The notes: generated by a model not told the origin, from the letters alone. A DNA stretch of 32,000 nucleotides from Candidatus Saccharimonadota bacterium (GCF_008189285.1 NZ_CP043315.1:540001-572000); one strand, 5' to 3'; shown: positions 6,980 through 30,917, counted from the stretch's first letter. A program made the numbers and translations.

Positions 6980-7286
6980 TGTATATTTTTTGAATCATAA
7001 TGATTAATTTTTGATTAAACTTTTATCTTCAATTACTTTGCTATTTTGCTCTATTCGCTCCATTATCTTAATATTTTTAAGATCTTAACTCAATTTATCT
7101 TTTTTATTATTCGCTACATTTATTAAATTTAGAGCCGTTATCTTGAATAGCAATTCATTTCATCCAGTTTAGATTCGCTTTTTTATATATCAACTCCACT
7201 TGCCCTTCTCGCTTTGCTCAACTTAACTTCTATTTCTCGTTTCTCTCAAAATCTTGCTCTTCTCGCTTTGGTCTGCTTATTAAATC

Positions 7287-7913: not shown

Positions 7914-7923
7914 TTTTTCTTAT

Positions 7924-8892
7924 TCAAGACCATTTCCTTTTAATTATTCCGGTCCTCCATACTGCTGCAAAAATCACAGATAGCGGCAATGTTAATATAA
8001 TACCGCTAATTCCAAGTAATTTTCCAAAAATTAACAACAGTATAAATAAAAATAAAGGATGTATTCCCGCTTTTCTTCCTATAAATAATTGAACCATAAA
8101 AACATTTTCCAATACAAATCCAAGGCTTAAAATAGCAAATGAATATATCATAAATTCTGAGAAAAATGGTTGATAACCAGATAAAATACTAAACATAATG
8201 ATAAATGAAATCATGTCTCCAATATATGGAATTATTGATAAAATACTAAATAAACAAGACAGTAAAAAGGCAAATGGCATATTGATATAACTTAATGCCA
8301 TAAAGTAATATGCAAATAAAGTTAATGTAACTAACATTTGTCCATAAATCCATATTTTCAATGAATGCATAATGTCTTCGAAAAGTATATTTGCCGTACT
8401 TTTATATTGCTCTGGAACAATGCTAAGAAATCTTGGCCTCCATAGCTCCCAATCTTTCAACATATAAAAACACATCATAATGACAGAAATAAATTGTAAG
8501 ACTAAATTTACCAAATCATAACCATATCCAGATGCAACAACAACAGCTTTTTGCAAACTATCTTTACTAAGAAGCATATTGCTTAAGGGTTGTTGGCCAT
8601 AATCATCCAAAATATGCGCATATTTATCAATGACTAATCTATATACTAATTGAAGAAATTTAAATAATTCAATTGCCTGCATGTAAAGTTTTGGTACTGA
8701 ATAAATTAATAACAATACCAATAAAATAGCAGCAATAAACACAGATAATAAAGCAGATAAAAATCTAGAAAATCCTATTTTCACTAATTTTTCATAAATT
8801 GGAGACAGAACATATGCAAGAAGAAAAGAAGAGAAAACAAGGGTTATAATATCTAAAAAATAAAATGCAATTCCAGTTGCAATAATGTTCAT
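7924..8892 (-). CDS. AI-2E/PerM (UPF0118) family membrane transporter
   Basis: ORF track. 322 aa with about 7-8 hydrophobic helices. The IIPYIGDMISF motif is typical of the family. A 4-nt ATGA overlap joins it to upstream pgsA. Confidence 0.7.
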   Translation of the reverse strand: MNIIATGIAFYFLDIITLVFSSFLLAYVLSPIYEKLVKIGFSRFLSALLSVFIAAILLVLLLIYSVPKLYMQAIELFKFLQLVYRLVIDKYAHILDDYGQQPLSNMLLSKDSLQKAVVVASGYGYDLVNLVLQFISVIMMCFYMLKDWELWRPRFLSIVPEQYKSTANILFEDIMHSLKIWIYGQMLVTLTLFAYYFMALSYINMPFAFLLSCLFSILSIIPYIGDMISFIIMFSILSGYQPFFSEFMIYSFAILSLGFVLENVFMVQLFIGRKAGIHPLFLFILLLIFGKLLGISGIILTLPLSVIFAAVWRTGIIKRKWS

Positions 8893-9404
8893 TTAATCAG
8901 CCTTCTGCAATAATCTAATATATTGAAAATCATAAATACTATGCATATCAAATACATTCTCCTCATGCAGAGTTGGCAATCTTCATATAAAGATAAAATT
9001 ATTGTTGATCCAATTATAACAGCAGTCAATTTTCCAGACCAACTTGCTTTGAAATTATTAATTCCATTTATAAACATAAATATAAATGCACTGAAAAACA
9101 TCATATCTCTTGCTATGCATACAAATAAGAACCATTTAGGAATAATGCTGCTCAAATACAAGCGAGATAAAATCAACATCCAGAATATTTTGTCTGATAT
9201 TGGATCAATTATTTCCCCTAATCTTGAACATAGTCCAAATTGCCTAGCTATAAATCCATCCAACACATCGCTAAATGCTCCAATGAACAAAAATATAACC
9301 GCATAACTTTCTGGGTATAAGCAAAAAAAAGATATTCCAAAGAAAATTCTAGAAATGCTTATTAAATTTGGTATTGCCATAATTGGCATGAATACCATTA
9401 GCAA
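8889..9404 (-). CDS. pgsA: CDP-alcohol phosphatidyltransferase (phosphatidylglycerophosphate synthase-like)
   Basis: ORF track. The signature D-x2-DG-x2-AR-x8-G-x3-D-x3-D is seen as [26 protein letters not shown]. 171 aa, multi-TM. Confidence 0.8.
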
Positions 9405-9814
9405 ATTTCCAGATCAGAAAAGAAGAAAGAGATTTCTCTGTTAGCGCTTTCTTCTGAATCTGAACCATGCACAGCATTGTTGTCGATAGAATCTCCATAC
9501 ATTTTTCTGATTGTTCCGTTATCAGACTCTGATGGATTTGTAGCTCCCATTAGATCTCTATTTGCTTTAATTGAATTTTCTCTTTCCAAAACTTGAACAA
9601 TTACAGGTCCAGAACACATAAAATCACATAAATCCCCATAAAACGGTCTTGCAGAATGCTCTTTATAGAATTCTTCAGCTTGTTTTTTAGACAAATGAAT
9701 CTTCTTCATTGCAACTATATTGAATCCATTGGACTCGAACATGCTTATAATATTTCCAGACACGCCTTTTTTAACTGCGTCAGGCTTAATAATAGATAAA
9801 GTTTTTAAAATCAT
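9398..9814 (-). CDS. ndk: Nucleoside diphosphate kinase
   Basis: ORF track. 138 aa with [29 protein letters not shown]. Confidence 0.93.
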
Positions 9815-9902
9815 AATAAAATTCTATCGTGTTCCTAAAATTAATTCAATTCAATTGAAACATTTCCTATATTGAAATGCTAAAAACTCATTATAAATTA
9901 TT

Positions 9903-10625
9903 TTATATTTCAAACATTACTGGAACATGATCGCTTGGTCTTTCCATTTTTCTGTAATGCTGCAAAGTTTTCAGTTTCCCTGAAACATTTTTAGATAATA
10001 TATAATCTATTCTCAAGCCTTCATTAGGCCTTCTATAATCCCACCAAGTAAAATCATTTTTTCCATCAGATATTTCATGGCAATCATCAAATTCAGCATC
10101 AAACACTTTTTGCATTCCATTTCTAACTTCATCTGTGCATAATACACTTCCAATCCATTTTGCAGGAGTTTGCATATCATCATCAGACATTGCAACATTG
10201 AAATCCCCTCCTATAATTGCACTTTCTTCGCCCTTCCATCTCGATGCAATAGATCCTAAAAATTCTTGCTTGTACTTATATGCTTCATCAGACTTATTTC
10301 CACATGGAACATATGCAGAAACTACATAATGTCCATTTGTAAATCCTTCAATATATCTTGCTTCTGTAGAATCATCTAAATCCCATTTCACATTCTCTAT
10401 AGGATATTTTGAAATAATAGCAACTCCATTATAAGTTTTTTGACCATGTATAGCTAAATGATAATTATGAGATTCAAAAAAATCTTTTGGGAAAAATTCA
10501 TTCATGCACTTCGTCTCTTGCAGCAATATAACATCAGGATTTTCTTCTGCAATTAATTGCTCTATTAATGGCAACCTCACCCTTACAGAATTAACATTCC
10601 ATGTAACAATTTTCATATTTATCAT
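9903..10625 (-). CDS. xthA: Exodeoxyribonuclease III (the start may be the second ATG at 10616)
   Basis: ORF track. MKIVTWNVNSVRVRL..DVILLQETK..GDFNV..DYRRPN..RIDYIL..SDHVPV are ExoIII/EEP family motifs. Confidence 0.9.
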   Translation of the reverse strand: MINMKIVTWNVNSVRVRLPLIEQLIAEENPDVILLQETKCMNEFFPKDFFESHNYHLAIHGQKTYNGVAIISKYPIENVKWDLDDSTEARYIEGFTNGHYVVSAYVPCGNKSDEAYKYKQEFLGSIASRWKGEESAIIGGDFNVAMSDDDMQTPAKWIGSVLCTDEVRNGMQKVFDAEFDDCHEISDGKNDFTWWDYRRPNEGLRIDYILSKNVSGKLKTLQHYRKMERPSDHVPVMFEI

Positions 10626-10744
10626 ATTATCACGTTCTTTAATTTAGTAGTAACAGCTCTCAAAAAAGATATCGCCATAAATATTAGAAATTTGTCAAGA
10701 AATTGTATTGATTTTGGAGCGCTGGATTAGTATGATGTTTATGT

Positions 10745-10815
10745 TGGGGTATAGCCAAGCGGTAAGGCATCGGGTTTTGGTCTCGTGATCCTAGGTTCGA
10801 ATCCTAGTACCCCAG
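10745..10815 (+). tRNA. tRNA-Gln (anticodon UUG)
   Basis: Hand-folded. Acceptor TGGGGTA/TACCCCA, T-arm CTAGG-TTCGAAT-CCTAG, and anticodon loop TTTTGGT with TTG at positions 34-36. CCA is not encoded. Confidence 0.85.
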
Positions 10816-10907
10816 CAATTTTCAAATATCATTATATTTCAGCAAAGATAAAATATCATTAGATTTCAATAAAACAAATAAATTATATAAATATTGCCCA
10901 TTTTGCA

Positions 10908-11235
10908 GCTATGAATCGAAAAACGCTTCTCTCTTTCGTTCTTGCTTCGCTATGAATCGAAAATCGCTTCTCTCTTTCGTTCTTGCTTCGCTATGAATCG
11001 AAAATCGCTTCTCTCTTTCGTTCTTGCTTCGCTATGAATCGAAAATCGCTTCTCTCTTTCGTTCTTGCTTCGCTATGAATCGAAAATCGCTTCTCTCTTT
11101 CGTTCTTGCTTCGCTATGAATCGAAAATCGCTTCTCTCTTTCGTTCTTGCTTCGCTATGAATCGAAAATCGCTTCTCTCTTTCGTTCTTGCTTCGCTATG
11201 AATCGAAATTCGTTTCTCTCTTTCGTTCTTGCTTA
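10908..11235 (+). repeat. Tandem array, 8 x 41 bp (gctatgaatcgaaaatcgcttctctctttcgttcttgcttc)
   Basis: The unit ATGs sit at 10911, 10952, 10993, 11034, 11075, 11116, 11157 and 11198, an exact 41-bp period. Six units are identical, the first has 1 substitution and the last has 3. Confidence 0.97.
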
Positions 11236-11274
11236 TCTCATAATTATCATCAACCATTTAATTGCAAAATCACC

Positions 11275-11280
11275 TATAAT
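11275..11280 (+). promoter_or_regulatory. Perfect TATAAT hexamer 6 nt upstream of the dnaQ ATG (possible leaderless-mRNA promoter)
   Basis: The sequence reads cacctataatacgattATG. No Shine-Dalgarno lies between, and no good -35 was seen. Confidence 0.25.
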
Positions 11281-11286
11281 ACGATT

Positions 11287-11928
11287 ATGAATATTATAGT
11301 TCTAGATACGGAAACCACTGGATTAAGCAGATCAACAGATAGGATCGTAGAAATAGGATGCATAGAATTAAATAATTTTGAATATACTGGAAGAAAATTA
11401 CACTTGTATATCAATCCGGAACAAGAAATGGGAGAAGAAGTACAAAAAATTCATGGAATAACTAATCAATTCCTTAAAGATAAGCCTGTCTTTAAAGATG
11501 TATATGAACAATTTCTAGACTTTGTAAAAGACTCAACTATAGTTGCTCATAATGCAAAATTTGATATGGGATTCCTAAACGCTGAGCTTTCAAGGCAAAA
11601 GCAAGAAAATTTAAGTAATAAAGTTGTAGATACTTTAGCTGTAGCGAGAAAAATGTTTCCAGGATCTCCTGCAAACTTAAATGCATTAGCTAAAAGATTC
11701 AATATTTCACTTCATGAAAGAACATTGCATGGAGCGCTGATTGATGCAAAAATATTGTCGAAAGTATATGTATCTCTTTATGCGCCAAAGCAACAGTCTC
11801 TTTTTGTTGAAGAAAAGAAAATAAAAACTGTATCTGGGAAAATTGAAAGATCTGAGAGCAAATTAACTGTTTCTGAAGAAGAAATGGATGCGCATAATAG
11901 TATTATGGATCAATTGAGGCAGAAATGA
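11287..11928 (+). CDS. dnaQ: DNA polymerase III epsilon subunit (3'-5' proofreading exonuclease)
   Basis: ORF track 11188..11928. I place the start at ATG 11287 (MNIIVLDTETTGL), because the upstream 33 codons lie inside the tandem repeat. The Exo motifs DTETTG, HNAKFDMGFL and HGALIDAKIL are present. Confidence 0.9.
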   Translation: MNIIVLDTETTGLSRSTDRIVEIGCIELNNFEYTGRKLHLYINPEQEMGEEVQKIHGITNQFLKDKPVFKDVYEQFLDFVKDSTIVAHNAKFDMGFLNAELSRQKQENLSNKVVDTLAVARKMFPGSPANLNALAKRFNISLHERTLHGALIDAKILSKVYVSLYAPKQQSLFVEEKKIKTVSGKIERSESKLTVSEEEMDAHNSIMDQLRQK

Positions 11929-13016
11929 ATAATGATTGCAATATAGCTGATGATGAAAAAAATAATGCAATTGATAATGCAAAAAACCATGTAATTGATA
12001 ATGCAGTTTTTATAGATAATAAAGTTGATTTAGATAACTTTATAATCACGCTTGAAGCTCCAGAAATAATATATTTTGACACTGAATTTCATCGCAGAAA
12101 CACTTATTGGTCTACATTATGCTTAATACAATTAAAAATAAATAATAAAATTGCCATTATTGATGCTCAAAAAGTAGAAATAAAAAATACTCTTATAGCA
12201 GAAATGTTTGCAAATTCTGAAATTCTTAAAGTATGCCACGCATGCGAACAAGATTTAAACGTTCTTAAACATGCTGAAATTAGCATAGAAAATTGCTTTG
12301 ACACTCAAATAGCAGCTTCATTTTGTCAATTAGGACACAATATGTCATATCAAAATCTTACAAAGCAAATTGTAGATGTAGAATTAGAAAAAAAATACCA
12401 AGATGCAATATGGAATGTTAGGCCACTTACAAAAGAAATGCTCGAATATGCAAAATATGATGTGATGTATCTTGATGTTATATTTAAATCATTATCATGT
12501 AAATTAAAAAATACAAATAGATATGAATGGGTTAAAGAAGAAGTATCAAATATTAAATATAACCCAAAGAAAAAATCTATGATTCATTTGTGGAGAGATA
12601 AATTAGCACAGAAAAAAAATATTCCACCTGGATGGATCCTGAACAATAAAATTCTTCATTCAATATCATGTGAAACAGATAGAAATAAAATAAAATCTAT
12701 GATTCCAGATAAATTGCAAATATACTTGCAGGATATAATGGATATTTTAAATTCCAGCACAAAACAAAAAGATAACATTGATGCTAATTTGCAAAATGCG
12801 CTACATATATTAATTAAAATTATTGCTGAAAATGAGAATATTCCTGCAAGCTGGCTTTGTAGCTCTGAGCAAGTAAGATTTATATGCGCAAATGGAAAAT
12901 TACAATATAAATATGGATGGAGATATGAAATGCTAAATCAATCGATAAATGATTTCTTAAATGACAAAATTAGCATATCATGCAAAAATAACAAAATGCA
13001 TATTAAAAATAAGTAA
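11925..13016 (+). CDS. rnd: Ribonuclease D (DEDDy 3'-5' exonuclease + HRDC-like C-terminus)
   Basis: ORF track. YFDTEFHRRNTYWSTLCLIQL, CHACEQDL and YAKYDVMYL are RNase D motifs. A 4-nt overlap joins it to dnaQ. The N/D-rich N-terminal extension contains an internal direct repeat. Confidence 0.85.
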   Translation: MNNDCNIADDEKNNAIDNAKNHVIDNAVFIDNKVDLDNFIITLEAPEIIYFDTEFHRRNTYWSTLCLIQLKINNKIAIIDAQKVEIKNTLIAEMFANSEILKVCHACEQDLNVLKHAEISIENCFDTQIAASFCQLGHNMSYQNLTKQIVDVELEKKYQDAIWNVRPLTKEMLEYAKYDVMYLDVIFKSLSCKLKNTNRYEWVKEEVSNIKYNPKKKSMIHLWRDKLAQKKNIPPGWILNNKILHSISCETDRNKIKSMIPDKLQIYLQDIMDILNSSTKQKDNIDANLQNALHILIKIIAENENIPASWLCSSEQVRFICANGKLQYKYGWRYEMLNQSINDFLNDKISISCKNNKMHIKNK

Positions 13017-13132
13017 TCCATAATTTTCTAAATTTATTAATTTATATAAAATTTATGATTTATGCCATGAAATTAATTAATATAATTCAAATCATCAAAA
13101 TAAAGAGATAATCCAAAATGGAGAAACGATAT

Positions 13133-13344
13133 TGTTCCACATGGAACAGTAAATTTACAATTGTTTTTTGCTGATAAGTGTTCCACATGGAACAATGAAT
13201 CCCTCAATGCATTCTTCAGAAAATGCTCCACATGGAACATATCTTGTCACATTAATAATTTCATAAACTTTCATTTTTATAAGATATTTTACAAAAGCTA
13301 ATAAATCATTCAACATTCTTAATGCCTTTGTTCCACATAGAACA
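13133..13344. repeat. Cluster of four palindrome-family copies (13133-13148, 13179-13194, 13224-13239, 13329-13344)
   Basis: TGTTCCACATGGAACA occurs twice perfectly. The other two copies are TGcTCCACATGGAACA and TGTTCCACATaGAACA. All lie in the convergent rnd/yebC spacer. Confidence 0.9.
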
Positions 13345-13374
13345 TTTGTTAATTGCTATATTTGATAAGTGTAA

Positions 13375-14073
13375 TTATATATTAGAGCAATTATGCCAAA
13401 CATTTTGAACATCATCATGATCTTCCATTATATCAATGAAATTTTTCACTTTTTCTATATCTTCAGCATCAATTTTACTTGTTGTCTTGTATGCTGATTC
13501 ACAAATAATTTCACTAAATTTGCTTTCAAGCGCATTCTGAATGTTAAATAAATCTGAGAAATTAGCAATTACATTAATTCCATCATCTTCATAAATATCA
13601 TCAATATCAAAATCTGCAAGCAATTCCAATACATCATCTTCACTAACTTTCTCATCATTTGTGCTTTTAATATTTGCCAATGCGATATGCTCAAACATAA
13701 ATGATAAATCATTAAGTCCAGATCCATATTTATTAAATAAAACTTTTAATTCTGTAAATGTTCTATTGCTATTATCTGTAATTCCTTCAATAAGAAATGC
13801 TATTTTCCCAGGCCCATATCCTGTATATTTTACTTCTATATCGGCATTCTTATCAGCAGCTTTATTGATAGCATTTTTAATATTATCTTTGGGCATATTA
13901 GCCCTTCTTGCTGCCTCTAATGCCGTTCTAAGAGAAGGATTCATCTTAGGGTCAGTCCCATTCCGAGCTGCTATAGTAAGAATTTTTCCTATTTTTGTAA
14001 AAACTTTAGCTCTTTTTGAGTCTTGTCTTTCTTTTCTATGTTTAATATTATGAAATTTCGAATGACCAGCCAT
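13375..14073 (-). CDS. yebC: YebC/PmpR family DNA-binding transcriptional regulator
   Basis: ORF track. MAGHSKFHNIKHRKERQDSKRAKVFTK..DPKMNPSLRTALEAARRANMPKDNI is the family hallmark. Confidence 0.92.
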   Translation of the reverse strand: MAGHSKFHNIKHRKERQDSKRAKVFTKIGKILTIAARNGTDPKMNPSLRTALEAARRANMPKDNIKNAINKAADKNADIEVKYTGYGPGKIAFLIEGITDNSNRTFTELKVLFNKYGSGLNDLSFMFEHIALANIKSTNDEKVSEDDVLELLADFDIDDIYEDDGINVIANFSDLFNIQNALESKFSEIICESAYKTTSKIDAEDIEKVKNFIDIMEDHDDVQNVWHNCSNI

Positions 14074-14140
14074 GATTTCATTCTATCATTTTATAAAATT
14101 GCAATCTATTGCCTGGAACCAAACAAGCATTAACGAATTA

Positions 14141-14893
14141 TCAAGCAAAATCTGCGCAATAATTCAACGGATTATCTGTATATTCGCTAGTGTATTGAGG
14201 TTGATCTGACTCCTCGCTTAAAGCTCTATTTAGATTCTGTAAGTAATCAGGAACAGAAGGATTTGGCAATCTTGGAGAAGCAACTGATTCAGTCAACTCT
14301 ACATCTTCATAAATCTCTTCTTCTGCCCCTGTAAAGTTTAATCTTCTCGCAGCTACATCTTGCTCATAAGATGACAAAGAAAGGCAATCAATCAAATTAT
14401 TCACTAAAAGATCTGCAGAATCTTCTTCAGATAACAAAGTAGGAGCACTACAAGAATCTGATGAATCACTGCATGATGAAAAACTTTCTAAAGCAGGAAT
14501 ACTTGATAAATCACTGGCATCACAAGACATTGGAATTAAATTAGGCATATCCAAATTTAATAATTCGCTTAATAATTCACTTGATATTTCATTATTAGGC
14601 AAATATGCATTATTTGCTGGCTTCCACTCTATTTCTTCTTCAGAAATCGGATCCAATGAATTGACTTCATTTGTTTCTTTTATCCAATTTGCGCAAGATT
14701 CAACTTTATCTAAATCTTCGCTTATTTCATTTACCATTGCTTCTGAAGTTGTATTTTTTCCTATAAATGTATATGGATTATGATTAAATAATTCATTATT
14801 TAAGTCATCATCTGTAGCGCAAATACTACTTGCCAATATTATTAATATACTATTTTTTAACATAACTATACTATAACATAAATTAATATTCAA
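14141..14893 (-). CDS. Hypothetical secreted acidic Ser/Asp/Glu-rich protein
   Basis: ORF track. There is a signal-peptide-like N-terminus (MLKNSILIILASSICA, from the second Met). The rest is acidic and low in complexity, with no recognisable domain. Confidence 0.6.
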   Translation of the reverse strand: MNINLCYSIVMLKNSILIILASSICATDDDLNNELFNHNPYTFIGKNTTSEAMVNEISEDLDKVESCANWIKETNEVNSLDPISEEEIEWKPANNAYLPNNEISSELLSELLNLDMPNLIPMSCDASDLSSIPALESFSSCSDSSDSCSAPTLLSEEDSADLLVNNLIDCLSLSSYEQDVAARRLNFTGAEEEIYEDVELTESVASPRLPNPSVPDYLQNLNRALSEESDQPQYTSEYTDNPLNYCADFA

Positions 14894-15077
14894 AGTAAAG
14901 AAATAATTAAATTATTATTTAATCAATACTGAAAAATACATAATAAGTAATAGTTTATACTATTCTTTGATAATATAGAAATAGCAAATAAGTTGATTAA
15001 TATAAACAAAATGAAAGAAATGGGAATTTGAAAATAAAGATAGTAAAATAGCAAATTGCTATAATATACAATACAAT

Positions 15078-15914
15078 ATGCATCATATGAAAGTAAAAAT
15101 TGAGCCATACAATTCAAACTGGATTAAACAATTTGAAATCGAAGAATGTAAAATTAAATCATCATTAGGGAAAAATTTAATATCTATTCATCACATTGGA
15201 TCTACAGCAATTCCAGAATTATCTGCAAAACCTATAATAGATATAATTGTAGAAATTGATAACTTAGAATTTGAGCACAAAGACTTAGAATGCTTGAATT
15301 ATGAATACAGAGGTGGATTCAATTTACCTTTGAGAAAATGCTTTACTTACAGATCGTCAAAATTAAATATTAATCTTCATATTTTTGAGAAAAATAATCC
15401 AGAAATAGAGCTAAACTTATTATTTTGCGATCATTTAAAAAATAATGATAACAATAAAGAAGAATATGAAAAGTTAAAATACAAACTTATTAAAAATGCA
15501 AAATCACATCAGAAAGATAATTCAATGTTTAAAAATTATACTTTAGGAAAACATGATTTTATAAAAGAAATATTGAAAAAGACAAAATTTAATCGTTTGA
15601 GATTTGTAATATGCGCGCATTTTGAAGAATTAAATGCAGCAAAGAAATATCGTAATGAGTATATTAGAAACGATAAATATGAACTCACTTTTCATGACGA
15701 AGATCACAAGCATTTTATTTTGTATGAAGGAATTAAAATTATTGGATATTCTCATATTCAACTGAAATTTGAAAAAAGAGCTATAATGCACATAATTGTA
15801 ATAGATAAGAATAATTGCACCCAATCAAATTATGATAAAAATTACATCAAAGAATTTCTATTTTTAATTGATAAATGGCTAAAACTGCAAAATTATATAA
15901 GATATGACAAATAG
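15078..15914 (+). CDS. GrpB (UPF0157) nucleotidyltransferase-fold domain fused to a degenerate GNAT-like C-terminal domain
   Basis: ORF track. The N-terminal half (VKIEPYNSNWIKQFE..IHHIGSTAIPELSAKPIIDIIVEI) matches GrpB. The C-terminal ~100 aa (HFILYEGIKIIGYSHIQL..AIMHIIVIDKN) resembles small GNATs but lacks the R/Q-x-x-G-x-G/A motif. Confidence 0.65.
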   Translation: MHHMKVKIEPYNSNWIKQFEIEECKIKSSLGKNLISIHHIGSTAIPELSAKPIIDIIVEIDNLEFEHKDLECLNYEYRGGFNLPLRKCFTYRSSKLNINLHIFEKNNPEIELNLLFCDHLKNNDNNKEEYEKLKYKLIKNAKSHQKDNSMFKNYTLGKHDFIKEILKKTKFNRLRFVICAHFEELNAAKKYRNEYIRNDKYELTFHDEDHKHFILYEGIKIIGYSHIQLKFEKRAIMHIIVIDKNNCTQSNYDKNYIKEFLFLIDKWLKLQNYIRYDK

Positions 15915-15955
15915 ATTTTTCCTGAAAACTGCATTATATATTATATTTTTGAAAA

Positions 15956-15971
15956 TGTTCCATGTGGAACA
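15956..15971. repeat. Palindrome family copy TGTTCCATGTGGAACA
   Basis: Read directly from the sequence; intergenic. Confidence 0.9.
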
Positions 15972-16050
15972 AGAGCTCAACTTTTTAATTAGATAGATAA
16001 TTTTGAATATATTTTGTTTATTGTTTTGTTTATTGACCTGAATACTCAAC

Positions 16051-16070
16051 ATTGTTCTACGTGGAACAAT
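16051..16070. repeat. Palindrome family copy ATTGTTCtACGTGGAACAAT (one mismatch)
   Basis: Read directly from the sequence; intergenic. Confidence 0.85.
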
Positions 16071-16132
16071 TTGTTTTTACATCACTTGTAAAAATTTAAA
16101 ATTTGTTTGCAATGCCAGTCAAAAAATACTTT

Positions 16133-16168
16133 ATGCATTGATGCATTGCTCAATTTGCATCAATGCAT
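16133..16168. terminator. 13-bp perfect-stem hairpin, candidate bidirectional terminator between convergent GrpB-like gene and rnpA
   Basis: The arms are ATGCATTGATGCA (16133-16145) and TGCATCAATGCAT (16156-16168), with a 10-nt loop. An A-run lies upstream and TAATTTT lies downstream. Confidence 0.5.
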
Positions 16169-16351
16169 TAATTTTCAAACCCAACTCAATATGAAGAACT
16201 TTACATCAAATGACCTGCGATCGATAATTTTATTTATTGATATTTTCTTCATTAATATGAAGATTTTGCATAAAATTGACAATTTTATAGACGTTTAATT
16301 ATTTTATAGATATTAAATTAAGTGAGACAATATGCATTTTGCACATTTTTA

Positions 16352-16681
16352 TTAACAAAATTTCTTTGTAAAAACACTTAGTACACATTCAAATAATTCT
16401 GAGAATTTTACATTGAAAGATTCTTTTTTCAAAACAATAACGATATTTTTCTTGATTTCTGTTTGAAATGTGCTTAAAGATAAGTCTATAGCACTTCTCA
16501 TTCTTCTTCTGCATTTATTCCTAAACACAGCATTGCCTAACTTTTTACTCGTTATAATTCCTATGCACAATTGAGATTCATTATCCATATGGCGCACAGT
16601 AAAAAATTGAGTAAAGAACGGCTTACTTTTTTTAATTTCTCTAAAGATAGATTTCTTATTTAAAGCAAGATACTTTCTCAC
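16352..16681 (-). CDS. rnpA: Ribonuclease P protein component
   Basis: ORF track (GTG start). ITSKKLGNAVFRNKCRRRMRSAI is the RnpA RNR-like motif. It lies immediately downstream of rpmH. Confidence 0.88.
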   Translation of the reverse strand: MRKYLALNKKSIFREIKKSKPFFTQFFTVRHMDNESQLCIGIITSKKLGNAVFRNKCRRRMRSAIDLSLSTFQTEIKKNIVIVLKKESFNVKFSELFECVLSVFTKKFC

Positions 16682-16816
16682 CTAAGCTGAAATCTTAATT
16701 CTACCTTTTCTTCTTCTAGCAGCTAAAATATTCCTACCGCTTTTGGAAGACATTCTTTCTCTAAATCCATGTCTTCTTTTTCTTACCAATTTACTTGGTT
16801 GATACGTACGTTTCAT
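16682..16816 (-). CDS. rpmH: 50S ribosomal protein L34
   Basis: Below the ORF-track size cutoff. Hand translation of the reverse strand from ATG 16816 gives [44 protein letters not shown]. Confidence 0.95.
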
Positions 16817-16936
16817 ATCATTATTTTCGCCACTTTCAAGCAATATGTCAATAATAATTTAAAATTTATAAACAATTTTTGCATTTTAGAGAAAATTATA
16901 TTGTAAAACAAACAATAAAAGAGTAAAATCCATTCT

Positions 16937-17024
16937 GGAGAGGTGGCCGAGAGGCTTATGGCGGCGGTTTGCTAAACCGTTATACGTTTTCAGCGTATCG
17001 AGGGTTCGAATCCCTTCCTTTCCG
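16937..17024 (+). tRNA. tRNA-Ser (anticodon GCU), long variable arm
   Basis: Hand-folded. Acceptor GGAGAGG/CCTTTCC, anticodon stem-loop GCGGT-TTGCTAA-ACCGT, a long extra arm, and T-arm GAGGG-TTCGAAT-CCCTT. Confidence 0.9.
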
Positions 17025-17362
17025 TGTTTAATAAAATTACAAAAAGAGGGACAGAAAAAGATTTTTGAATAAATAAATATTGAAGTTTAAGACTCCTAAA
17101 AAGGGCAGAGCCAATTAGATTCTCATAGAGATTTAGCTAAGCATTAAAATTTAAAGTGCTAAGTAAGAGAATTAAGCAAAATTAGCTTATAAACAGGTAA
17201 AATTATATTAAGATGAATTCTTTATCTTGTAGATTTTGCAAATATTTAATAGAGAGATAAAATTTAATGGGATAAATAACTGTATTCAGTATTTTCCTTT
17301 TTGTTAAAATATTATAAATATTTAAGTTTTTCGAAATTTAAATAAAGAAAGGGAAATAAAAA

Positions 17363-18556
17363 ATGAATGAAAATGACACAGTAAATAACTCAAACTCTGG
17401 AAACGACGGAGGAAACAGAGAAAGAAGTTCAGGCGGAGATTTTAGAGGAAATCGTGAAGGCGGCGGAAGTCGCGGAGGTTTCGGCGGCGGACGTGACGGT
17501 GGAAGTCGCGGAGGTTTCGGCGGCGGACGTGACGGTGGAAGCCGTGGCGGATTCGGTGGCGGACGTGATGGCGGAAGCCGTGGCGGATTCGGTGGCGGAC
17601 GTGATGGTGGAAGCCGTGGCGGATTCGGTGGCGGAAGTCGCGGAGGTTTCGGTGGCGGACGTGACGGTGGAAGCCGTGGCGGATTCGGCGGAGAAAGATC
17701 TGGCGGATTCGGTGGCGGACGTGACGGTGGAAGCCGTGGCGGATTCGGTGGCGGACGTGATGGCGGAAGCCGTGGCGGATTCGGCGGAGAAAGATCTGGC
17801 GGATTCGGTGGCGGACGTGACGGCGGAAGTCGCGGAGGTTTCGGCGGCGGACGTGACGGTGGAAGTCGCGGAGGTTTCGGTGGCGGACGTGACGGTGGAA
17901 GTCGTGGAGGTTTCGGTGGCGGAAGTCGCGGAGGCTTCGGTGGCGGACGTGATGGCGGAAGTCGTGGCGGATTCGGTGGAGAAAGATCTGGTGGATTCGG
18001 TGGCGGACGTGACGGCGGAAGTCGTGGCGGATTCGGTGGAGAAAGATCTGGTGGATTCGGTGGTGGACGTGACGGCGGAAGTCGTGGCGGATTCGGTGGC
18101 GGACGTGACGGTGGAAGTCGCGGAGGTTTCGGTGGCGGAAGTCGCGGAGGCTTCGGTGGAAGCCGTGACGGTGGAAGCCGTGGCGGATTCGGTGGCGGAC
18201 GTGATGGCGGAAGTCGTGGCGGATTCGGTGGAAATCGTGATGGTGGAAACAGATTCGAAAATGAAAATTCAAACAGAGGAAACTTCAGAGATAATAACAA
18301 TGAAGAAAGATTCAATAACGAAGATGCAAACGAAAATCAATTCGAGAGCAATATAGTGATTGAAGATGAATCCGAAGAAGGAATTTCAAATGAAAATCAA
18401 TCTGAGAATGAAACATCCAATGAATCTGAAGAAAATTCTAACGATGAATCTAAAGAAGATGAATCCGAAGAAGACTCTAACGATGAATCTGAAGAAGATG
18501 AGTCAGAAGAAGATTCTAACGATGAGTCAGAAGAAGACGCAACAAACAAGGACTAA
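17363..18556 (+). CDS. RGG/GAR-repeat protein with an acidic D/E/S/N-rich C-terminal tail (no other domain)
   Basis: ORF track. ATG is preceded by AAGGGA at an 8-nt spacing. About 25 modules of [12 protein letters not shown] / GSRGGFGG / ERSGGFGG are present. Differences between repeats are synonymous in this frame. The ORF extends about 100 codons beyond the repeats into the tail ..[29 protein letters not shown]. Confidence 0.8.
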
Positions 18557-18682
18557 TAATCCAAATTTCAAAGAAATGATGCAATCTGCATCGATTTTGC
18601 GATTATTTATCGCAAATAAAATTACAATAATACAATAAATATAGCCAGGATCGAGCTACTCAAGTTAAAACAAAGAATATAA

Positions 18683-18700
18683 ATGCTCCAAGCGGAGCAT
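18683..18700 (+). terminator. Weak hairpin ATGCTCC-AAGC-GGAGCAT downstream of the RGG gene
   Basis: A 7-bp stem read directly from the sequence. No U-run follows. Confidence 0.2.
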
Positions 18701-18796
18701 GCTAAAATACTAATAAATTTACTTCATATAAAATATTTTTGAATATACAAATTAACAAGCATATCTAAACAATTATTATTTTATAAAAAATATTGA

Positions 18797-18812
18797 TGCT
18801 CCACGTGGAACA
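18797..18812. repeat. Palindrome family copy TGcTCCACGTGGAACA (one mismatch)
   Basis: Read directly from the sequence; intergenic. Confidence 0.85.
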
Positions 18813-18935
18813 ATTTATAAGATCTTGCATTGTCTGCATTTTAAATTTTAAACATATCATTAGAAAAATTAATCTTATTGATAATAATGCGATTTATCTT
18901 AATGATAATTTTTTAATGAATTAAAGGAGATTTAT

Positions 18936-19721
18936 ATAGCAAGACTAAAAAATAAAATAGCATTAATCACAGGCGGGGACATGGAGTTAAAATAGAAACT
19001 ATCTTGCTTGCTTAATTCTAAAGGAGCAACTGTTATTATAGTTGATTTGTTGGAAAATGAAGACCAAACAGTGGCAGATAGCATTAATGGGGATCTTGTA
19101 CTATGTATGTTGCAAATAAATCAGAATGGGTGGATTATAAATGCAATAAAGAATAAATTTGGTTGATTGGATATTTTATTTAATAATGCTAAAATTACAG
19201 GTTTTGATGAGAATTTAGGTCAGGAAAATATTAGATTGGAAACTTGGCATCATGTGCATAAAATAAATTTAGATGACGTATTTTTGAGATGCAAATATGG
19301 AGCTTCTCTTATGAAACAGAACGGTGGATCAATTGTTAATATCATCTAGATTTTGGAGTTGTTGAAATTCCTAGGGCTAGCCGCATATACATAAAGCAAA
19401 GCAGCTGTAAGAAATCACACAAAAACTGTTGCCCTATATTGCGCAGAACAAGGTTATAAAATTCGTTGCAATTCACTTCATCCTGGAGCAATATTAACTC
19501 CAATGTGGGATTCTATGTTTGGAAATGACAAAAAATCTCGCGAAAAAATGATTAATTCAATTGCTTCTGGCGTGCCACTTGGAACTATGGGAGAGCCTAG
19601 CGATGTTGCAAATGCTGTACTTTATCTTGGTTCTGATGAATCAAAATATATAACTGGAATAGAATTAAATATTGACGGAGGAATTCTTGCAGGAAGTCAA
19701 TCTGCGCCAAAAAAGAATTAG
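18936..19721 (+). pseudogene. Short-chain dehydrogenase/reductase (FabG-like) pseudogene
   Basis: A single reading frame translates as (I)ARLKNKIALITGG..GATVIIVD..FG*LDILFNNAKI..GGSIVNII*..AAYT*SKAAV..IRCNSLHPGAILTPM..GEPSDVANAVLYLGSDESKYITG. In-frame stops occur at 18993, 19164, 19347 and 19392. The start codon position reads ATA, 5 nt after an intact AAGGAGA. The glycine-rich cofactor motif is degraded, and one stop falls inside YxxxK. Confidence 0.85.
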
Positions 19722-19736
19722 AATGAATAATAAATT

Positions 19737-19750
19737 GTTCCACATGGAAC
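19737..19750. repeat. Palindrome family copy GTTCCACATGGAAC
   Basis: Read directly from the sequence, 16 nt after the pseudogene stop. Confidence 0.85.
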
Positions 19751-19952
19751 GCTATAATTTGTGACTATGAATTCTTAATAAACTTTTCATTTGAAATTCT
19801 TTGTATAAAATATGCATCAAAGAAATTAACATCATATCTTTCTCCATCTAATCCGCTACAGCTTCCACCTTCACACCACTTAAACCTCCACGAATTCTAT
19901 AATCGAATACGCTAATGAAGTTTAATGCTTTAAATTTAGCATTTTAAACTTT

Positions 19953-19968
19953 TGTTCCACATGGAACA
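19953..19968. repeat. Palindrome family copy TGTTCCACATGGAACA
   Basis: Read directly from the sequence; intergenic. Confidence 0.9.
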
Positions 19969-27200: not shown

Positions 27201-28096
27201 AGTTTATGCATTTCAAATGGAAAGGCAAATAATCCACCTGGAGATTCAATTTGACTAATCATAATTTCTTGCTGTAGAACTAACAACCTATCAATTACTT
27301 GATCAATAGCATTTTCGATAAATTGAATATCTTCTATTCCAGAAATATAATTTGGATTTGACCATCCAAACATTTCATTTTGCAATTTATATTCCAAAGA
27401 ATTAGCAAAATGAGCAAACCCTGGAATCAAATCAGTATGAGTAATTACAATATATATAGGAATATTAACTCCAAATTTTTTCTGCATATTCCATAGCTTG
27501 ATATAATAATGCTCTGCAATATTACTTAAATTCATCGATTCGTCAAGAATATCATTCATTGAAATAGTTAAAATTAAACTATCGATTGGTCTCTCTGGTC
27601 TGTGATAAGACAATAAATGCAATAACTTATTCCAATTACTATCATCTGATGAAACATACGCCTCTCCAGATGAGAAGAGAGCGCTATTCATTTCAAGCAA
27701 TACAGCATCATTAAAAAAGAACCAATCGCAAAATTCATTTTTTTCAACCAAATCATCAATTGTTCTTTCAAGCTTTAAGCTATTTATTATTGAGGATTTC
27801 CCTGATTTTTCTGCTCCCATAATCATAATAAATGGCAATTTGTATTTAAAATCTTTATTTCCCAAAAATGAATATAAAGTGTGCATATTATTATCAAATG
27901 AATTTTTCATTCTATTATCAAATACATTCTCAAACTTAAACAAATCAGAAATATATTTTTTAAACTTAGTTAAATATATTAATGACACCTTAAATGCTTT
28001 AGGTATTTTGCCATGATGCTTATTTAACAGTATGAAGATAGTAGCTGAAATACTGCTAATTAATACTGTTGGAAGTAAATTATATATTTTGAACAT
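24257..28096 (-). CDS. tssM: IcmF/TssM-like T6SS inner-membrane protein
   Basis: ORF track, 1279 aa. There is an N-terminal hydrophobic helix, Walker A GAEKSGKSS, a second TM segment near aa 400 (ILQYLFMIMCLGGVVSLSHFY) and a large C-terminal region. Position downstream of a DotU gene supports the call. Confidence 0.8.
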   Translation of the reverse strand: MFKIYNLLPTVLISSISATIFILLNKHHGKIPKAFKVSLIYLTKFKKYISDLFKFENVFDNRMKNSFDNNMHTLYSFLGNKDFKYKLPFIMIMGAEKSGKSSIINSLKLERTIDDLVEKNEFCDWFFFNDAVLLEMNSALFSSGEAYVSSDDSNWNKLLHLLSYHRPERPIDSLILTISMNDILDESMNLSNIAEHYYIKLWNMQKKFGVNIPIYIVITHTDLIPGFAHFANSLEYKLQNEMFGWSNPNYISGIEDIQFIENAIDQVIDRLLVLQQEIMISQIESPGGLFAFPFEMHKLRSKISEFLYYIFKRNSLHDSFMLRGIYFVGSARKNAYASHEFSQSLKSVEFGSIMHHSDFEAADDILFINNLFVDKIFKEKSIASSLSRRILDNSNKVRILQYLFMIMCLGGVVSLSHFYSRIYRTKSDFRQGVERIRLAVHNAKLVYKGTYDELDNSILEDQSLSLINAMNNINADGLFSYFLPPSWFSSLRYDINFMLGSACDVILFKFIASKFNLDLRNAIAGKVSFKNDNKKAFDPFVSDEFVEFYEYVKQVVKLENIYNKIQRIPYLHNIDDVAYVMKNLLNLDASHNLKKNKRIFSNVLKYAKFNINSIESYKKEIIFKAEYMFDKFINNALQYEKIIPNIVYIQTTLKKIEDKQNYDTEKLNSYFNDLASSFNNKKLMWVSEEKLGFNDNLNNMIYRIQDSHVLGPKVAHKMKKRISSRIISLKERMLTHRIPIIGSIFHKNENGVMLFSKNFSEFQGVLNLLAGKSFMKYRKVEMNYAIKDSLVKWNLNKLANIAKMIDEFRRFTDHNMLYQHEKATNAMSIVACNSIMKNISYTLSNSQTQFDTFDKEDALLSNISQNFKEAQKYLTKILDFIRFRNAVLFADLKNAIQKQSIKFIEKMNHMLVNKDLYNIAKSDFYFDENIRKADVEEYLVKQNEQITYLSELSEPAVRLLSKVSDMGQKIYSPTFLEWKTINESVEKNREGKANQIKSIEKFIKTYVLDRKDCSEILDIESSSNQDYFDRKKMDIISSIGNKCLFDNYNTVKVQYRKIRSYFNKYMAHRFPFNKKSNVEVTPEEARNFLAIWREKNMNIDLLSRYLKHKYTWAMFLYKMNSIIPWLESMSDIKKYPGSFLITLRTNRENEKLGDHLAIWNMKFGNQEVSMNMDPKEIELGNYDFSNTMKISKESNYAFEKGGSCEMKYKGFFGIIRLIDKFCAKNCNKGKKLKMKIPLRCGKELVVWCDVELKGNLMDWPNFPSYAAEFPAGEARLCSK

Positions 28097-28814
28097 TTTC
28101 TATATCCTTTTGCACAATGCTAATTAAATTAGATATTTCATGAGTAGATTGATACCATAAAATATAACTAATACTTATATAAGACAGCAATGAAATCCCC
28201 AATATCATCATCCAAACTTGATAACTCTTCATATTTGCATTAGATATTTTAATAATTGTATGCTGTTGAGATTGTGGAAATAAATTATCATTATGAATAT
28301 TAGGGTCATAATTATTGACTAATTGAAATAATTGACTCTTATAATCTTTGATAATTCCTCCATCATCCAATCCTCTGTATTTTCCTCTAAAATTTAATCC
28401 CAAACAAAGCAAGTAAGAGCTTCCTATATCATATTTATAAACTGCATTAGAATGAATAAAATTGCTTATATTGTCAAATAATTTTGTCCCACCTATATGA
28501 GTTCCAAAAATTTGCATCTCCAAATTATTTTTTTTCCAAGCCTCTTTATCTTTCCATTCTATATTAATAAAAGTTTCATCAGCAAAAACAGTCATTATAT
28601 AGGAAATTTCCTTATACCCTGATTCTATTAATGTTCCTTCTTCTGCTGCTAAGTCTCTTTTATAGTATATCATTCTCATCAAGATATCTTGTATATCTCT
28701 TGAATTATAGTTATTTTGATTTAATAAGATCAATTCTTTAAATTTCAAAACTTCATTTAAAAACTCTTGAAAACACCCCATTAGGAATGATTGATCTATC
28801 TTATTACTTGCCAT
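28080..28814 (-). CDS. tssL: DotU/TssL-like T6SS inner-membrane protein
   Basis: ORF track, 244 aa. The DotU core is YIMTVFADETFINIEW..W..L..FG..GG..F..YLLCLGLNFRGKYRG, followed by a single C-terminal TM (VWMMILGISLLSYISISYILWY). A 17-nt overlap joins it to tssM. Confidence 0.8.
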   Translation of the reverse strand: MASNKIDQSFLMGCFQEFLNEVLKFKELILLNQNNYNSRDIQDILMRMIYYKRDLAAEEGTLIESGYKEISYIMTVFADETFINIEWKDKEAWKKNNLEMQIFGTHIGGTKLFDNISNFIHSNAVYKYDIGSSYLLCLGLNFRGKYRGLDDGGIIKDYKSQLFQLVNNYDPNIHNDNLFPQSQQHTIIKISNANMKSYQVWMMILGISLLSYISISYILWYQSTHEISNLISIVQKDIENVQNI

Positions 28815-29107
28815 ATCTCAAGGCAAACTTAATATATAAAAGTAAAATTTGTTTTAATTAAATAATTTTTAACTTGCATTTCCCATTTCACTCAAAACAT
28901 TGCTATAACTCAATTCTTTCATTTAGATAAATTTCATTTGCTCTTCTTGCTTTCATTCATTTTACTATATTTTATATAAACACTTCATATAAAACATTTA
29001 TTTGCAATTGCTTCATTATTTGAATAAATTTTTTACTTGGAACATTATGTATAATTCACATCTAAATTAACAATATTAAATTCTTTTTTGATAAATTCAA
29101 TGTTTTA

Positions 29108-29130
29108 TTTTTGTTCCATATGGAACATTT
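29108..29130. repeat. Palindrome family copy with flanks: TTTTTGTTCCATATGGAACATTT (left boundary of the 34-bp array module)
   Basis: Read directly from the sequence. It is the exact reverse complement of 30043-30065. Confidence 0.9.
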
Positions 29131-29188
29131 ATATTTATTGCATTTAACGCTCTACCGCAACTCACCAACGCCCTTTATTATTGCAATA

Positions 29189-30024
29189 ACGAATGATCAA
29201 AGCAAAGCTGAGAATGAGAGAAACGAATGATCAAAGCAAAGCTGAGAATGAGAGAAACGAATGATCAAAGCAAAGCTGAGAATGAGAGAAACGAATGATC
29301 AAAGCAAAGCTGAGAATGAGAATGAATGATCAAAGAAACGAATGATCAAAGCAAAGCTGAGAATGAGAGAAACGAATGATGATCAATGATCAAAGCTGAG
29401 AATGAGAGAAACGAATGATCAAAGCAAAGCTGAGAATGAGAGAAACGAATGATCAAAGCAAAGCTGAGAATGAGAGAAACGAATGATCAAAGCAAAGCTG
29501 AGAATGAGAGAAACGAATGATCAAAGCAAAGCTGAGAATGAGAGAAACGAATGATCAAAGCAAAGCTGAGAATGAGAGAAACGAATGATCAAAGCAAAGC
29601 TGAGAATGAGAGAAACGAATGATCAAAGCAAAGCTGAGAATGAGAGAAACGAATGATCAAAGCAAAGCTGAGAATGAGAGAAACGAATGATCAAAGCAAA
29701 GCTGAGAATGAGAGAAACGAATGATCAAAGCAAAGCTGAGAATGAGAGAAACGAATGATCAAAGCAAAGCTGAGAATGAGAGAAACGAATGATCAAAGCA
29801 AAGCTGAGAATGAGAGAAACGAATGATCAAAGCAAAGCTGAGAATGAGAGAAACGAATGATCAAAAAGCAAAGCTGAGAATGAGAGAAACGAATGATCAA
29901 AGCAAAGCTGAGAATGAGAGAAACGAATGATCAAAGCAAAGCTGAGAATGAGAGAAACGAATGATCAAAGCAAAGCTGAGAATGAGAGAAACGAATGATC
30001 AAAGCAAAGCTGAGAATGAGAGAA
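29189..30024 (+). repeat. Tandem array, about 25 x 34 bp (acgaatgatcaaagcaaagctgagaatgagagaa)
   Basis: The exact 34-bp period was verified at several points (e.g. 29189 to 29223). Most units are identical. Indel variants occur at about 29311-29400 and about 29866. No unique spacers are present. TGA stops close every reading frame on both strands within about 102 bp. Confidence 0.97.
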
Positions 30025-30042
30025 GCTGTTTAAAATAAACAC

Positions 30043-30065
30043 AAATGTTCCATATGGAACAAAAA
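30043..30065. repeat. Palindrome family copy with flanks: AAATGTTCCATATGGAACAAAAA (right boundary of the 34-bp array module)
   Basis: Read directly from the sequence. It is the exact reverse complement of 29108-29130. Confidence 0.9.
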
Positions 30066-30320
30066 AGAAAATATTTAATATTGTTAATTATTAAATGAAA
30101 AATTAATTTATCATTTTGCGAGAGAATTATTTAAATAAAAAATCGCAAATTAGATTGATTGTATTTGCTTAAAATCTTAATAATTTGAAATAAATATTTA
30201 AATAAATAAAATTGACAACTGTTAAATTTAACAATTTTTTGAAATATTAATTAAGAAAATTAACTAAATTAATTAATCCAAAGCTAAGCATTCAAAGAAT
30301 GACAGTTAAAAGAACAAGTA

Positions 30321-30917
30321 TTAAGCAGCTTCTGCTTTACCGAATACTTTATCCATTGAAATACCTCTTTTGATAGCGATCATTTTTGGAGATTGCATGC
30401 TAAATACCCCTTTAAACAGAGCTTTAACAACGTTATGAGGGTTATTACTTCCAATAACCTTTACAACTGCATCTTTTACTCCCAAAGCATCTAATGAAGA
30501 TCTAACTACTTCACTGGCAATGATACCAGTACCAACAGGAGCAGATCTTAAGCAAATTCTAGTGCTGCAATATTTTACTTCAGCATCATGATGGAATGTT
30601 CTTCCTTCTTTCAGTGAAACTTTAAACATAGATCTAGAAGCTTTGTCCATAGCTTTTCTTACAGCATCAGAAACTTCTTTTGCCTTACCTAAGCTATATC
30701 CTGCAGATCCATTTCCATCTCCAACTATTACAAACGCACAAACTCTTTGTCTTTTTCCACCTTTTGTAACAGCTGCAATCCAATTCAAAGAAAGAACGTG
30801 ATTGATCAAATTTTCTTTCTTCCTGGAAGAATCAAATCTTCTATTGCGTGATCTTCTAGCTTGAGGAACACCTGCATTACTATCTTTATTAAAAGTATTT
30901 TTAATAGTATTCATCAA
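30321..30917 (-). CDS. rpsE: 30S ribosomal protein S5
   Basis: ORF track. ..VTKGGKRQRVCAFVIVGDGNGSAGYSLGKAKEV..AVRKA..GTGIIA..GVKD matches S5. Confidence 0.93.
   Translation of the reverse strand: MMNTIKNTFNKDSNAGVPQARRSRNRRFDSSRKKENLINHVLSLNWIAAVTKGGKRQRVCAFVIVGDGNGSAGYSLGKAKEVSDAVRKAMDKASRSMFKVSLKEGRTFHHDAEVKYCSTRICLRSAPVGTGIIASEVVRSSLDALGVKDAVVKVIGSNNPHNVVKALFKGVFSMQSPKMIAIKRGISMDKVFGKAEAA

Follow-up and report, generated by a model that had tools for sequence, protein, structure and literature searches.

Among described systems, the variable-number tandem repeats (VNTRs) of Wolbachia (VNTR-105 and VNTR-141) and the repeats of Ehrlichia ruminantium come closest to the array reported here: they are intergenic, have been attributed to slipped-strand mispairing and concerted evolution, and have been assigned no function (PMC3287509, PMC10710844). 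The array in question is a 34-bp minisatellite located between rpsE and the type VI secretion system (T6SS) genes tssL-tssM-tssA (tssLMA), within a 32,000-nucleotide stretch of DNA (NZ_CP043315.1:540001-572000, GCF_008189285.1) that was analyzed as a whole and is referred to below as the window. Like the VNTRs of Wolbachia and E. ruminantium, it is an intergenic, noncoding head-to-tail repeat in the reduced genome of an obligately intracellular alphaproteobacterium, its units are almost identical, and the few that differ do so by internal indels. In contrast, its unit is shorter (34 bp compared to 105 to 141 bp) and has no internal hairpin, the copies are more numerous (24), it is carried by a Holosporaceae-type symbiont of protists, and the array is bracketed by an inverted duplication of 56 to 75 bp. 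The likeness is drawn from the sequence of one genome, and copy-number polymorphism is what defines a VNTR in practice. On balance, the array is probably a noncoding VNTR-type minisatellite that arose by slippage and recombination in junk DNA at a gene-order breakpoint and that plays no dedicated role in T6SS control. It probably lacks a dedicated function, which would make it neutral; at most, it would passively keep the promoter region of tssLMA 0.84 kb away from the point where the rpsE transcription unit ends.

Tandem Repeats Finder reported the minisatellite at 29188-30024 with a period of 34, 24.0 copies, and a score of 1141, and cutting the sequence manually at each unit start yielded 24 head-to-tail units over the same interval. 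Twenty-one units are exact copies of AACGAATGATCAAAGCAAAGCTGAGAATGAGAGA, while the remaining three are indel variants of 47 nt (at 29290), 39 nt (at 29371), and 36 nt (at 29852, with two extra A residues); there are no base substitutions. The units are purine-rich on the plus strand and adjoin each other directly. Clustered regularly interspaced short palindromic repeats (CRISPR) have unique spacers between direct repeats, which are lacking here, and Pfam scans of the gene-like open reading frames (ORFs) of ≥60 amino acids in the window revealed no Cas families. All six frames of the array are closed, solely by TGA (76 on the plus strand and 26 on the minus strand, with no TAA or TAG). Because TGA is a genuine stop in this genome, where it terminates 9 of the 30 genes in the window, the array is noncoding. 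One TGATCA is found in each unit, giving 26 in the array compared to 9 in the other 31 kb of the window. The core of the 34-mer had no match in GTDB genomes, JGI metagenomes, or IMG/VR, and a search for solo units elsewhere in the window and in the relatives' loci returned just chance-level matches of 12 to 16 nt (e.g., at 7217-7248). A first-pass annotation of this DNA had described about 25 near-perfect 34-bp units; the near-perfect array stands, with the count revised to 24. The same annotation had noted that the repeat is spacer-free and therefore not CRISPR, that stops close every frame on both strands, and that each unit holds one GATC inside a TGATCA palindrome, all of which we reproduced, and its proposal of recent expansion or homogenization is in keeping with the identity of 21 of the 24 units.

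Searches for a function in the array itself gave the following results. No RNA family was detected by Rfam (E ≤ 10), and four units folded no better than shuffled sequences (z score of +1.2 as DNA and +0.5 as RNA). Promoter-like hexamers were present at chance frequency (9 found compared to 7.7 expected). Outside the array, GATC occurs at 3.0 per kb compared to 2.8 expected, no sign of a Dam system was seen, and the array contains no GANTC; the earlier idea of a GATC methylation switch thus found no support. Contingency tracts lie in an ORF or in the spacer between the −35 and −10 elements; here, the 34-bp unit lies 374 nt upstream of tssL, and no ORF spans the array.

The genomic context is that of a small endosymbiont. 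TssL shares 64% identity with its counterpart in Candidatus Cytomitobacter primus, and the values for two other ~620-kb genomes are 60% and 57%; the host belongs to the Cytomitobacter/Nesciobacter clade of diplonemid endosymbionts and has a genome of ~628 kb. This clade comprises Holosporaceae-type endosymbionts of diplonemid protists with a modified T6SS (10.1101/719211). Nearly identical genomes from clonal sister host strains are mentioned by George et al. The Pfam-assigned genes that flank the array, tssL/DotU-tssM/IcmF-tssA/ImpA beyond one end and rpsE-rplR-rplF beyond the opposite end, are all on the minus strand. The first-pass annotation had placed the repeat module 294 bp upstream of the tssL start and at the point where the ribosomal spc operon is broken. 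Both statements were borne out: 294 nt separate the tssL start from position 29108, and rpsE ends at 30321. The array proper begins 374 nt upstream of the tssL ATG. Since C. primus and Nesciobacter keep the order rpsE-rplO-secY-adk, the rpsE/tssL junction is derived. Furthermore, C. primus and the two other ~620-kb genomes carry an intact tssLMA behind divergent rseP-bamA-ompH-fabZ, with spacers of 164, 65, and 171 bp and no array. Because the junction is derived and the tssLMA genes of the relatives are array-free, the array, which lies at a lineage-specific junction, does not belong to the conserved makeup of T6SS control. Absence of the array upstream of tssLMA in relatives had been named in the first-pass annotation as one of the findings that would together point to neutral satellite DNA; it is absent in all three, and on that count the array points to neutral satellite DNA. 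In the closest relative (SRR12358675/6), which is represented by short-read contigs and whose TssL is 80% identical, conservation upstream of the tssL ATG extends over 43 nt only (28815-28857; alignment with L001). A tblastn search with the relatives' proteins identified no relics of rplO, secY, rseP, bamA, ompH, or fabZ in the spacer.

The gene rplO is also missing after rpsE at locus L128 (10583-12324) and in the closest relative (L005, 6916-7425), each of which has a different, unrelated sequence there; at both loci, the array is absent within 510 nt after rpsE. In L005, an inverted repeat of 16 nt (GCGACTGGCAAAATTT and AAATTTTGCCAGTCGC) encloses the ~300 nt that follow rpsE. The rpsE end looks like a recurrent breakpoint.

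The array is enclosed by two inverted arms. Their palindrome-containing ends of 23 nt, at 29108-29130 and 30043-30065, are exact reverse complements, as the first-pass annotation had stated, and the full inverted similarity extends over 75 nt on the left and 56 nt on the right. Both arms include the exact outer 17-mer AATTAACAATATTAAAT, which is present in the window at these two places only, and they differ by an indel of ~19 nt and by two mismatches in the inner part; in the left arm, the T-rich stretch holds a local insertion or duplication of ~19 nt. The gapped alignment of the arms scored 59, compared to 18.6 ± 3.1 for shuffled sequences, and none of the 500 shuffles reached 59. Because this score is far above the shuffles, the arms are a genuine local inverted duplication and not a chance flank match. 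Beyond the arms, no similarity was found. The outer flanks scored like shuffled sequences, and an inverted duplication taking in the entire intergenic region was therefore rejected. Thus, of the discrete module with terminal inverted repeats described in the first-pass annotation, the inverted arms are real; on the other hand, they are longer than 23 nt, and their core is a motif dispersed through the window.

The core palindrome, TGTTCCAYRTGGAACA, occurs 13 times in the window within three mismatches, compared to 0.1 expected, and 12 of the copies are intergenic (the exception being that at 10296), though noncoding DNA makes up ~23% of the window. The half-site TGTTCCA(C/T) forms a 16-bp inverted repeat, and since the flanks of the copies are at background identity, it is the 16-mer itself that is conserved. 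The copies form clusters at 13133/13179/13224/13329, 15956/16053, and 19736/19953; those at 13133, 13179, and 13224 are 45 to 46 bp apart and lie between the convergent genes rnd and yebC. Pseudomonas aeruginosa and P. putida have TGTTCCACGTGGAACA as their chromosomal parS (PMC7022226, Table 1), and parS of Myxococcus xanthus, TGTTCCACGTGGAACG, is present at 22 sites clustered near the origin and binds ParB in gel shift assays (PMC3899335). Twelve of the 13 copies fall within two mismatches of TGTTCCACGTGGAACA, with 14 to 15 of 16 positions identical to Pseudomonas or Myxococcus parS; five copies are TGTTCCACATGGAACA (15/16), and the two that flank the array are TGTTCCATATGGAACA (14/16). By sequence only, the palindromes match parS, and they are putative ParB-binding sites.

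Compared to chromosomal parS sites of the ParB/Spo0J type (TGTTNCACGTGAAACA, or TGTTCCACGTGGAACA and TGTTCCACGTGGAACG in the two genera above), the palindrome is likewise 16 bp long and, as in M. xanthus, present in a multicopy cluster. However, 11 of the 13 copies have CA, TG, or TA where parS has its central CG, and 13 copies in 32 kb is a high density for a 628-kb genome. On the plus strand, the center reads CACATG in eight copies, CATGTG in one, CA/TACGTG in two, and CATATG in two; the bias toward CACATG would fit strand-biased G:C-to-A:T decay of an ancestral CACGTG. The ~150 kb sampled from relatives lacked the motif. Neither parA nor parB was detected by Pfam in the window or among the loci fetched from relatives, and ParB is unmentioned in the paper describing the clade (10.1101/719211). 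The window contains rnpA and dnaX; it shows neither an excess of DnaA boxes nor another origin signature, nor a skew switch.

A simple terminator scan of the region flagged three sites, namely, a hairpin at the rpsE stop (30337-30323) and the two array-flanking palindromes, whose hairpin has a predicted energy of −7 kcal/mol. The palindrome at 29112 forms its hairpin on the plus strand and is followed by a T-rich tail directed into the array. Because the T-rich tail of each flanking palindrome points inward, transcription may not enter the array, as far as consensus-level evidence goes. When the site listing was inspected by eye, the other copies were mostly without a T-tail after the hairpin, and several were preceded by T. 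Other identities were considered for the palindrome and set aside: as an extracytoplasmic function σ or σ54 promoter element, it has no consistent downstream element in the site listing as read by eye; as a DnaA box, it is at odds with the lack of a DnaA-box excess in the window; and an alphaproteobacterial LexA box was likewise dropped.

The 34-bp array has counterparts in the window and in the clade. The second minisatellite of the window (41-bp units, Table 1) is opposite in orientation, being pyrimidine-rich on the plus strand, and the tRNA-Gln/dnaQ junction at which it lies is also a breakpoint relative to the order rnd-dnaQ-xthA-tRNA-Gln-fabZ of the relatives L003 and L004. Each 41-bp unit carries a GAATC (GANTC) site. 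A third array, with 31.6 copies of 43 bp at 99% identity, is found between pyrG and rnd in L004 (1098-2454), the relative with 57% TssL identity; its subtypes are GCGCAGCGAATAG at the start and GCGAAGTGAACAG at the end, and its 43-mer and the 41-mer of the window have GAA(G)CAAGAACGAAAG in common. At the pyrG/rnd junction of L003, the array is absent. The units of all three arrays are 68 to 76% purine on one strand. The 34-mer and the 41-mer aligned with a score of 27, compared to 13.5 ± 3.1 for shuffled sequences (2 of 1,000 shuffles reached it), and the score for the 41-mer and the 43-mer was reached by 9 of 1,000 shuffles; similarity between the 34-mer and the 43-mer was not significant. 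No comparable arrays were detected in ~95 kb from four other relative regions, and the core of the 41-mer had no match in metagenomes. A GTDB scan with the degenerate pattern AGCGAAG-N(1-10)-AAGAACGAAAG gave at least 120 single chance matches in unrelated taxa.

Several other explanations were weighed against these data. The 34-mer and 41-mer arrays may be halves of one array that once lay between tRNA-Gln and tssL and was cut by an inversion of ~18 kb, or recombination between two inverted arrays may itself have produced the inversion. Such an origin, which would be compatible with a neutral minisatellite, is possible because re-inverting 11235-29187 restores the tRNA-Gln(+)...tssL(+)MA order of L003 and L004, minus the fabZ-rseP block; moreover, the two arrays have related units, are inverted relative to each other at a distance of 18 kb, and are both pyrimidine-rich in the sense direction relative to tRNA-Gln and tssL. 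Nonetheless, at least two further rearrangements would be needed, as dnaQ and rpsE were not neighbors ancestrally either, similarity between the units is only ~73%, with indels, the agreement in orientation has a 1-in-2 chance, and gene order in the clade is generally scrambled. We regard a split array as possible but unproven, and as rather unlikely. The flanking palindromes raise a different prospect, that of a composite centromere or organizer in which both are active ParB loading sites of the 13-site cluster and the array is tied to the architecture of the partition complex, for example by binding another protein or by being held within a ParB-coated zone. The core is 14 to 15 of 16 identical to experimentally proven parS, its conservation within flanks of background identity implies selection on the motif itself, and the dense sites with their 46-bp spacing at 13133/13179/13224 resemble the 22-site cluster of M. 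xanthus. Plasmid centromeres such as sopC of F are tandem 43-bp arrays, which also counts in its favor. Set against this are the lack of parA/parB in the window and an unverified ParB in the clade, the lack of a DnaA-box excess or other origin signature, a 34-mer that has a 6-bp palindrome only (TGATCA) and no parS half-site, 41-bp and 43-bp arrays that have no inverted flanks or palindromes around them, and ~150 kb of relatives in which the motif was not found. The centromere-like relic suggested earlier is partly borne out, but by another part of the module: it is the flanking palindromes that match a known parS, and not the 34-mer. The sopC unit, at ~43 bp, belongs to a similarly tandem and noncoding array of the iteron-type centromere class, but it holds a 16-bp SopB-binding palindrome and lies beside sopAB, whereas the 34-mer has no partition genes nearby. 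The sopC region is mentioned in a passage of PMC3597684. A composite centromere is, in our judgment, distinctly unlikely, and we give the same low standing to its extended form, in which the lineage would have expanded a parS-type motif to at least 13 sites in ~25 kb, with a center that drifted to CACATG or CATATG, and the array would be part of a repeat-rich centromere or organizer whose parS sites and purine-rich minisatellites jointly mark, and perhaps cause, gene-order breaks.

The position and the arms of the array invite two further readings. With its terminal inverted repeats, the module could be a nonautonomous mobile element, either a miniature inverted-repeat transposable element (MITE) or BOX-like, with arms recognized by a transposase, expandable units, and an insertion or recombination event that made the rpsE/tssL junction; it is discrete, its arms of 56 to 75 nt are significant, it sits exactly at a synteny breakpoint, and the outer arm has outward-facing promoter-like hexamers, at chance frequency only. 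BOX elements of Streptococcus pneumoniae (boxA-boxB(n)-boxC) are likewise modular and noncoding, with variable tandem internal units of ~45 bp between partly complementary end modules. They occur in >100 dispersed copies per genome, whereas one module was seen here, and neither the arms nor their 17-mer recurred in the window or in ~150 kb of relatives. In addition, there is no target-site duplication at 29064/30090 (ACATCTA precedes the left arm and ATTAAAT follows the right one), Pfam detected no transposase in the window, and plasmid, phage, metagenome, and GTDB searches gave no match apart from a single spurious 36-nt Borreliella hit for the arms plus array. The dispersed parS-like motif accounts for the core of the arms. 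A MITE-like vehicle, as floated in the first-pass annotation, is accordingly an outside chance. The other reading is a cis-regulatory device for tssLMA, whether a length-variable spacer, a set of regulator or titration sites, or a 0.9-kb segment invertible through its arms. The array lies upstream of tssL and shares its transcriptional orientation, the inward hairpin and T-tail at both arms would insulate it from outside transcription, and the exact 23-nt match of the arms could support inversion. However, the relatives run tssLMA from an array-free spacer of 65 to 171 bp, upstream conservation with the closest relative is limited to the 43 nt before the ATG, the repeat is too long and too far from the −35/−10 spacer for the known mode of contingency tracts, the related arrays adjoin unrelated genes (dnaQ and pyrG/rnd), and the window encodes no site-specific recombinase. 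The array of regulator sites and the contingency switch proposed earlier for tssLMA are both unsupported in view of the relatives' array-free operons, and we hold cis-regulation to be very improbable. At least one defining test goes against each of the MITE, contingency-switch, and iteron readings.

If the array is instead a minisatellite born of slippage and recombination, as we favor, a short sequence would have been duplicated and then expanded into the 34-bp array, whose units would be kept homogeneous by replication slippage together with unequal RecA-dependent exchange or gene conversion. The three variant units would represent microhomology-type indels from the same process, and the arms would be a local inverted duplication of 56 to 75 bp that happens to include one dispersed parS-like site, rather than transposon ends. 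RecA and RecFOR have been reported for the clade (10.1101/719211), and ruvC lies within the window. Several points weigh against this account. Its neutrality is argued from absence of evidence, and the weak similarity of units across loci and species could reflect shared constraint, and so function, rather than descent. A discrete module with inverted arms of 56 to 75 bp is unusual for a plain slippage product, and the other two arrays are without such arms. The 21 identical units and the indel-only variants could in part be artefacts of hybrid-assembly consensus or polishing, a caveat that holds if the source is Ca. C. indipagum, whose assembly combined 2 × 125-bp reads with nanopore data (10.1101/719211); because such an artefact is possible, the copy number is not secure. 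Other copies of the module are possible elsewhere in the genome, as the search covered the 32-kb window. Table 1 lists the features discussed.

Table 1. Coordinates of the 34-bp minisatellite, its surroundings, and related features in the 32,000-nt window
Feature	Position	Strand	Evidence or description
Minisatellite, 24 × 34 bp	29188..30024		Tandem Repeats Finder; unit-by-unit dissection; no Rfam match; no unusual folding
Left inverted arm, 75 nt	29065..29139		17-mer AATTAACAATATTAAAT, T-rich stretch, parS-like palindrome, inner ATTTATATTTATT
Right inverted arm, 56 nt	30034..30089		Reverse complement of left arm apart from indel and 2 inner mismatches
Unique leader, 48 nt, relatively GC-rich, between left arm and array	29140..29187		Sequence; blastn-short, ARAGORN, and Rfam negative
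Trailer, 9 nt (GCTGTTTAA), from last unit to right arm	30025..30033		Sequence
Array-flanking palindrome TGTTCCATATGGAACA	29112..29127		14/16 to Pseudomonas-type parS TGTTCCACGTGGAACA
Array-flanking palindrome TGTTCCATATGGAACA	30046..30061		Minus-strand hairpin and T-rich tail, 260 nt downstream of rpsE
11 other palindrome copies	span 5720..19968		At 5720, 10296, 13133, 13179, 13224, 13329, 15956, 16053, 18797, 19736, and 19953
tssL (DotU family), first gene of tssL-tssM-tssA	28080..28814	-	Pfam
rpsE (S5), last gene of truncated spc cluster	30321..30917	-	Pfam
Second minisatellite, 41 bp × 8, 98% identity, tRNA-Gln to dnaQ	10908..11234		Tandem Repeats Finder

Within the leader, the direct 8-mer TTATTGCA at 29137-29144 and 29177-29184 brackets the GC-rich core. 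By eye, the minus strand of the leader (GGGCGTT..GGTAGAGCG) looked like the 5' half of a tRNA, a likeness that was supported by none of the tools applied: Rfam (E ≤ 10), relaxed-mode ARAGORN, and a blastn-short comparison with the full set of local tRNAs and loci, which also found no homolog of the leader.

Other parts of the window deserve mention. At 17363-18556, a 397-amino-acid ORF encodes RGG/GGF-type glycine-arginine repeats followed by acidic DESEE repeats and has no Pfam match; it resembles a eukaryote-like glycine-arginine-rich (GAR) domain and is overlapped by a long antisense ORF, and the GC content is 49% over 17001-18000 compared to 30% for the genome. Short ORFs at 19167-19349 and 19503-19721 match different parts of a short-chain dehydrogenase/enoyl-ACP reductase, and the pair looks like a fragmented pseudogene; the 1.6-kb noncoding stretch around these fragments holds three parS-like sites and a 38-bp repeat of 2.8 copies (20062-20170). 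A degenerate tandem repeat of 28 bp in ~5 copies (23211-23369) begins within the 3' end of a glyoxalase gene and occupies the spacer as far as the tssA 3' end. Directly downstream of ruvC, a 51-bp repeat of 2.2 copies with 96% identity (6482-6590) abuts a DUF4280 gene (PAAR-like, T6SS-associated; 6596-6979), far from tssLMA. A 208-amino-acid ORF at 7287-7913 has a P-loop-like stretch and matches the Hda lid domain only weakly (E = 0.0025); its product may be a divergent Hda/DnaA-regulatory protein.

Altogether, the array is real and largely ordinary, and the noteworthy by-product of its analysis is the dense cluster of parS-type palindromes. The array adds a Holosporaceae-type protist-symbiont example to the intergenic VNTRs of Wolbachia and Ehrlichia, which is of little importance by itself, and for diplonemid symbionts it would make a convenient marker in strain typing; it also serves as a warning that tandem-array copy number in hybrid assemblies is soft. 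Because both high-copy arrays of the window sit at gene-order breakpoints, our data suggest that repeats and rearrangement are linked in otherwise "stable" reduced genomes. If ParB is present, the parS-like cluster would pinpoint the centromere and origin domain of this endosymbiont and would provide a testable case of parS drift, in which the center of the dyad changed from CG to CA or TA under AT mutational pressure.

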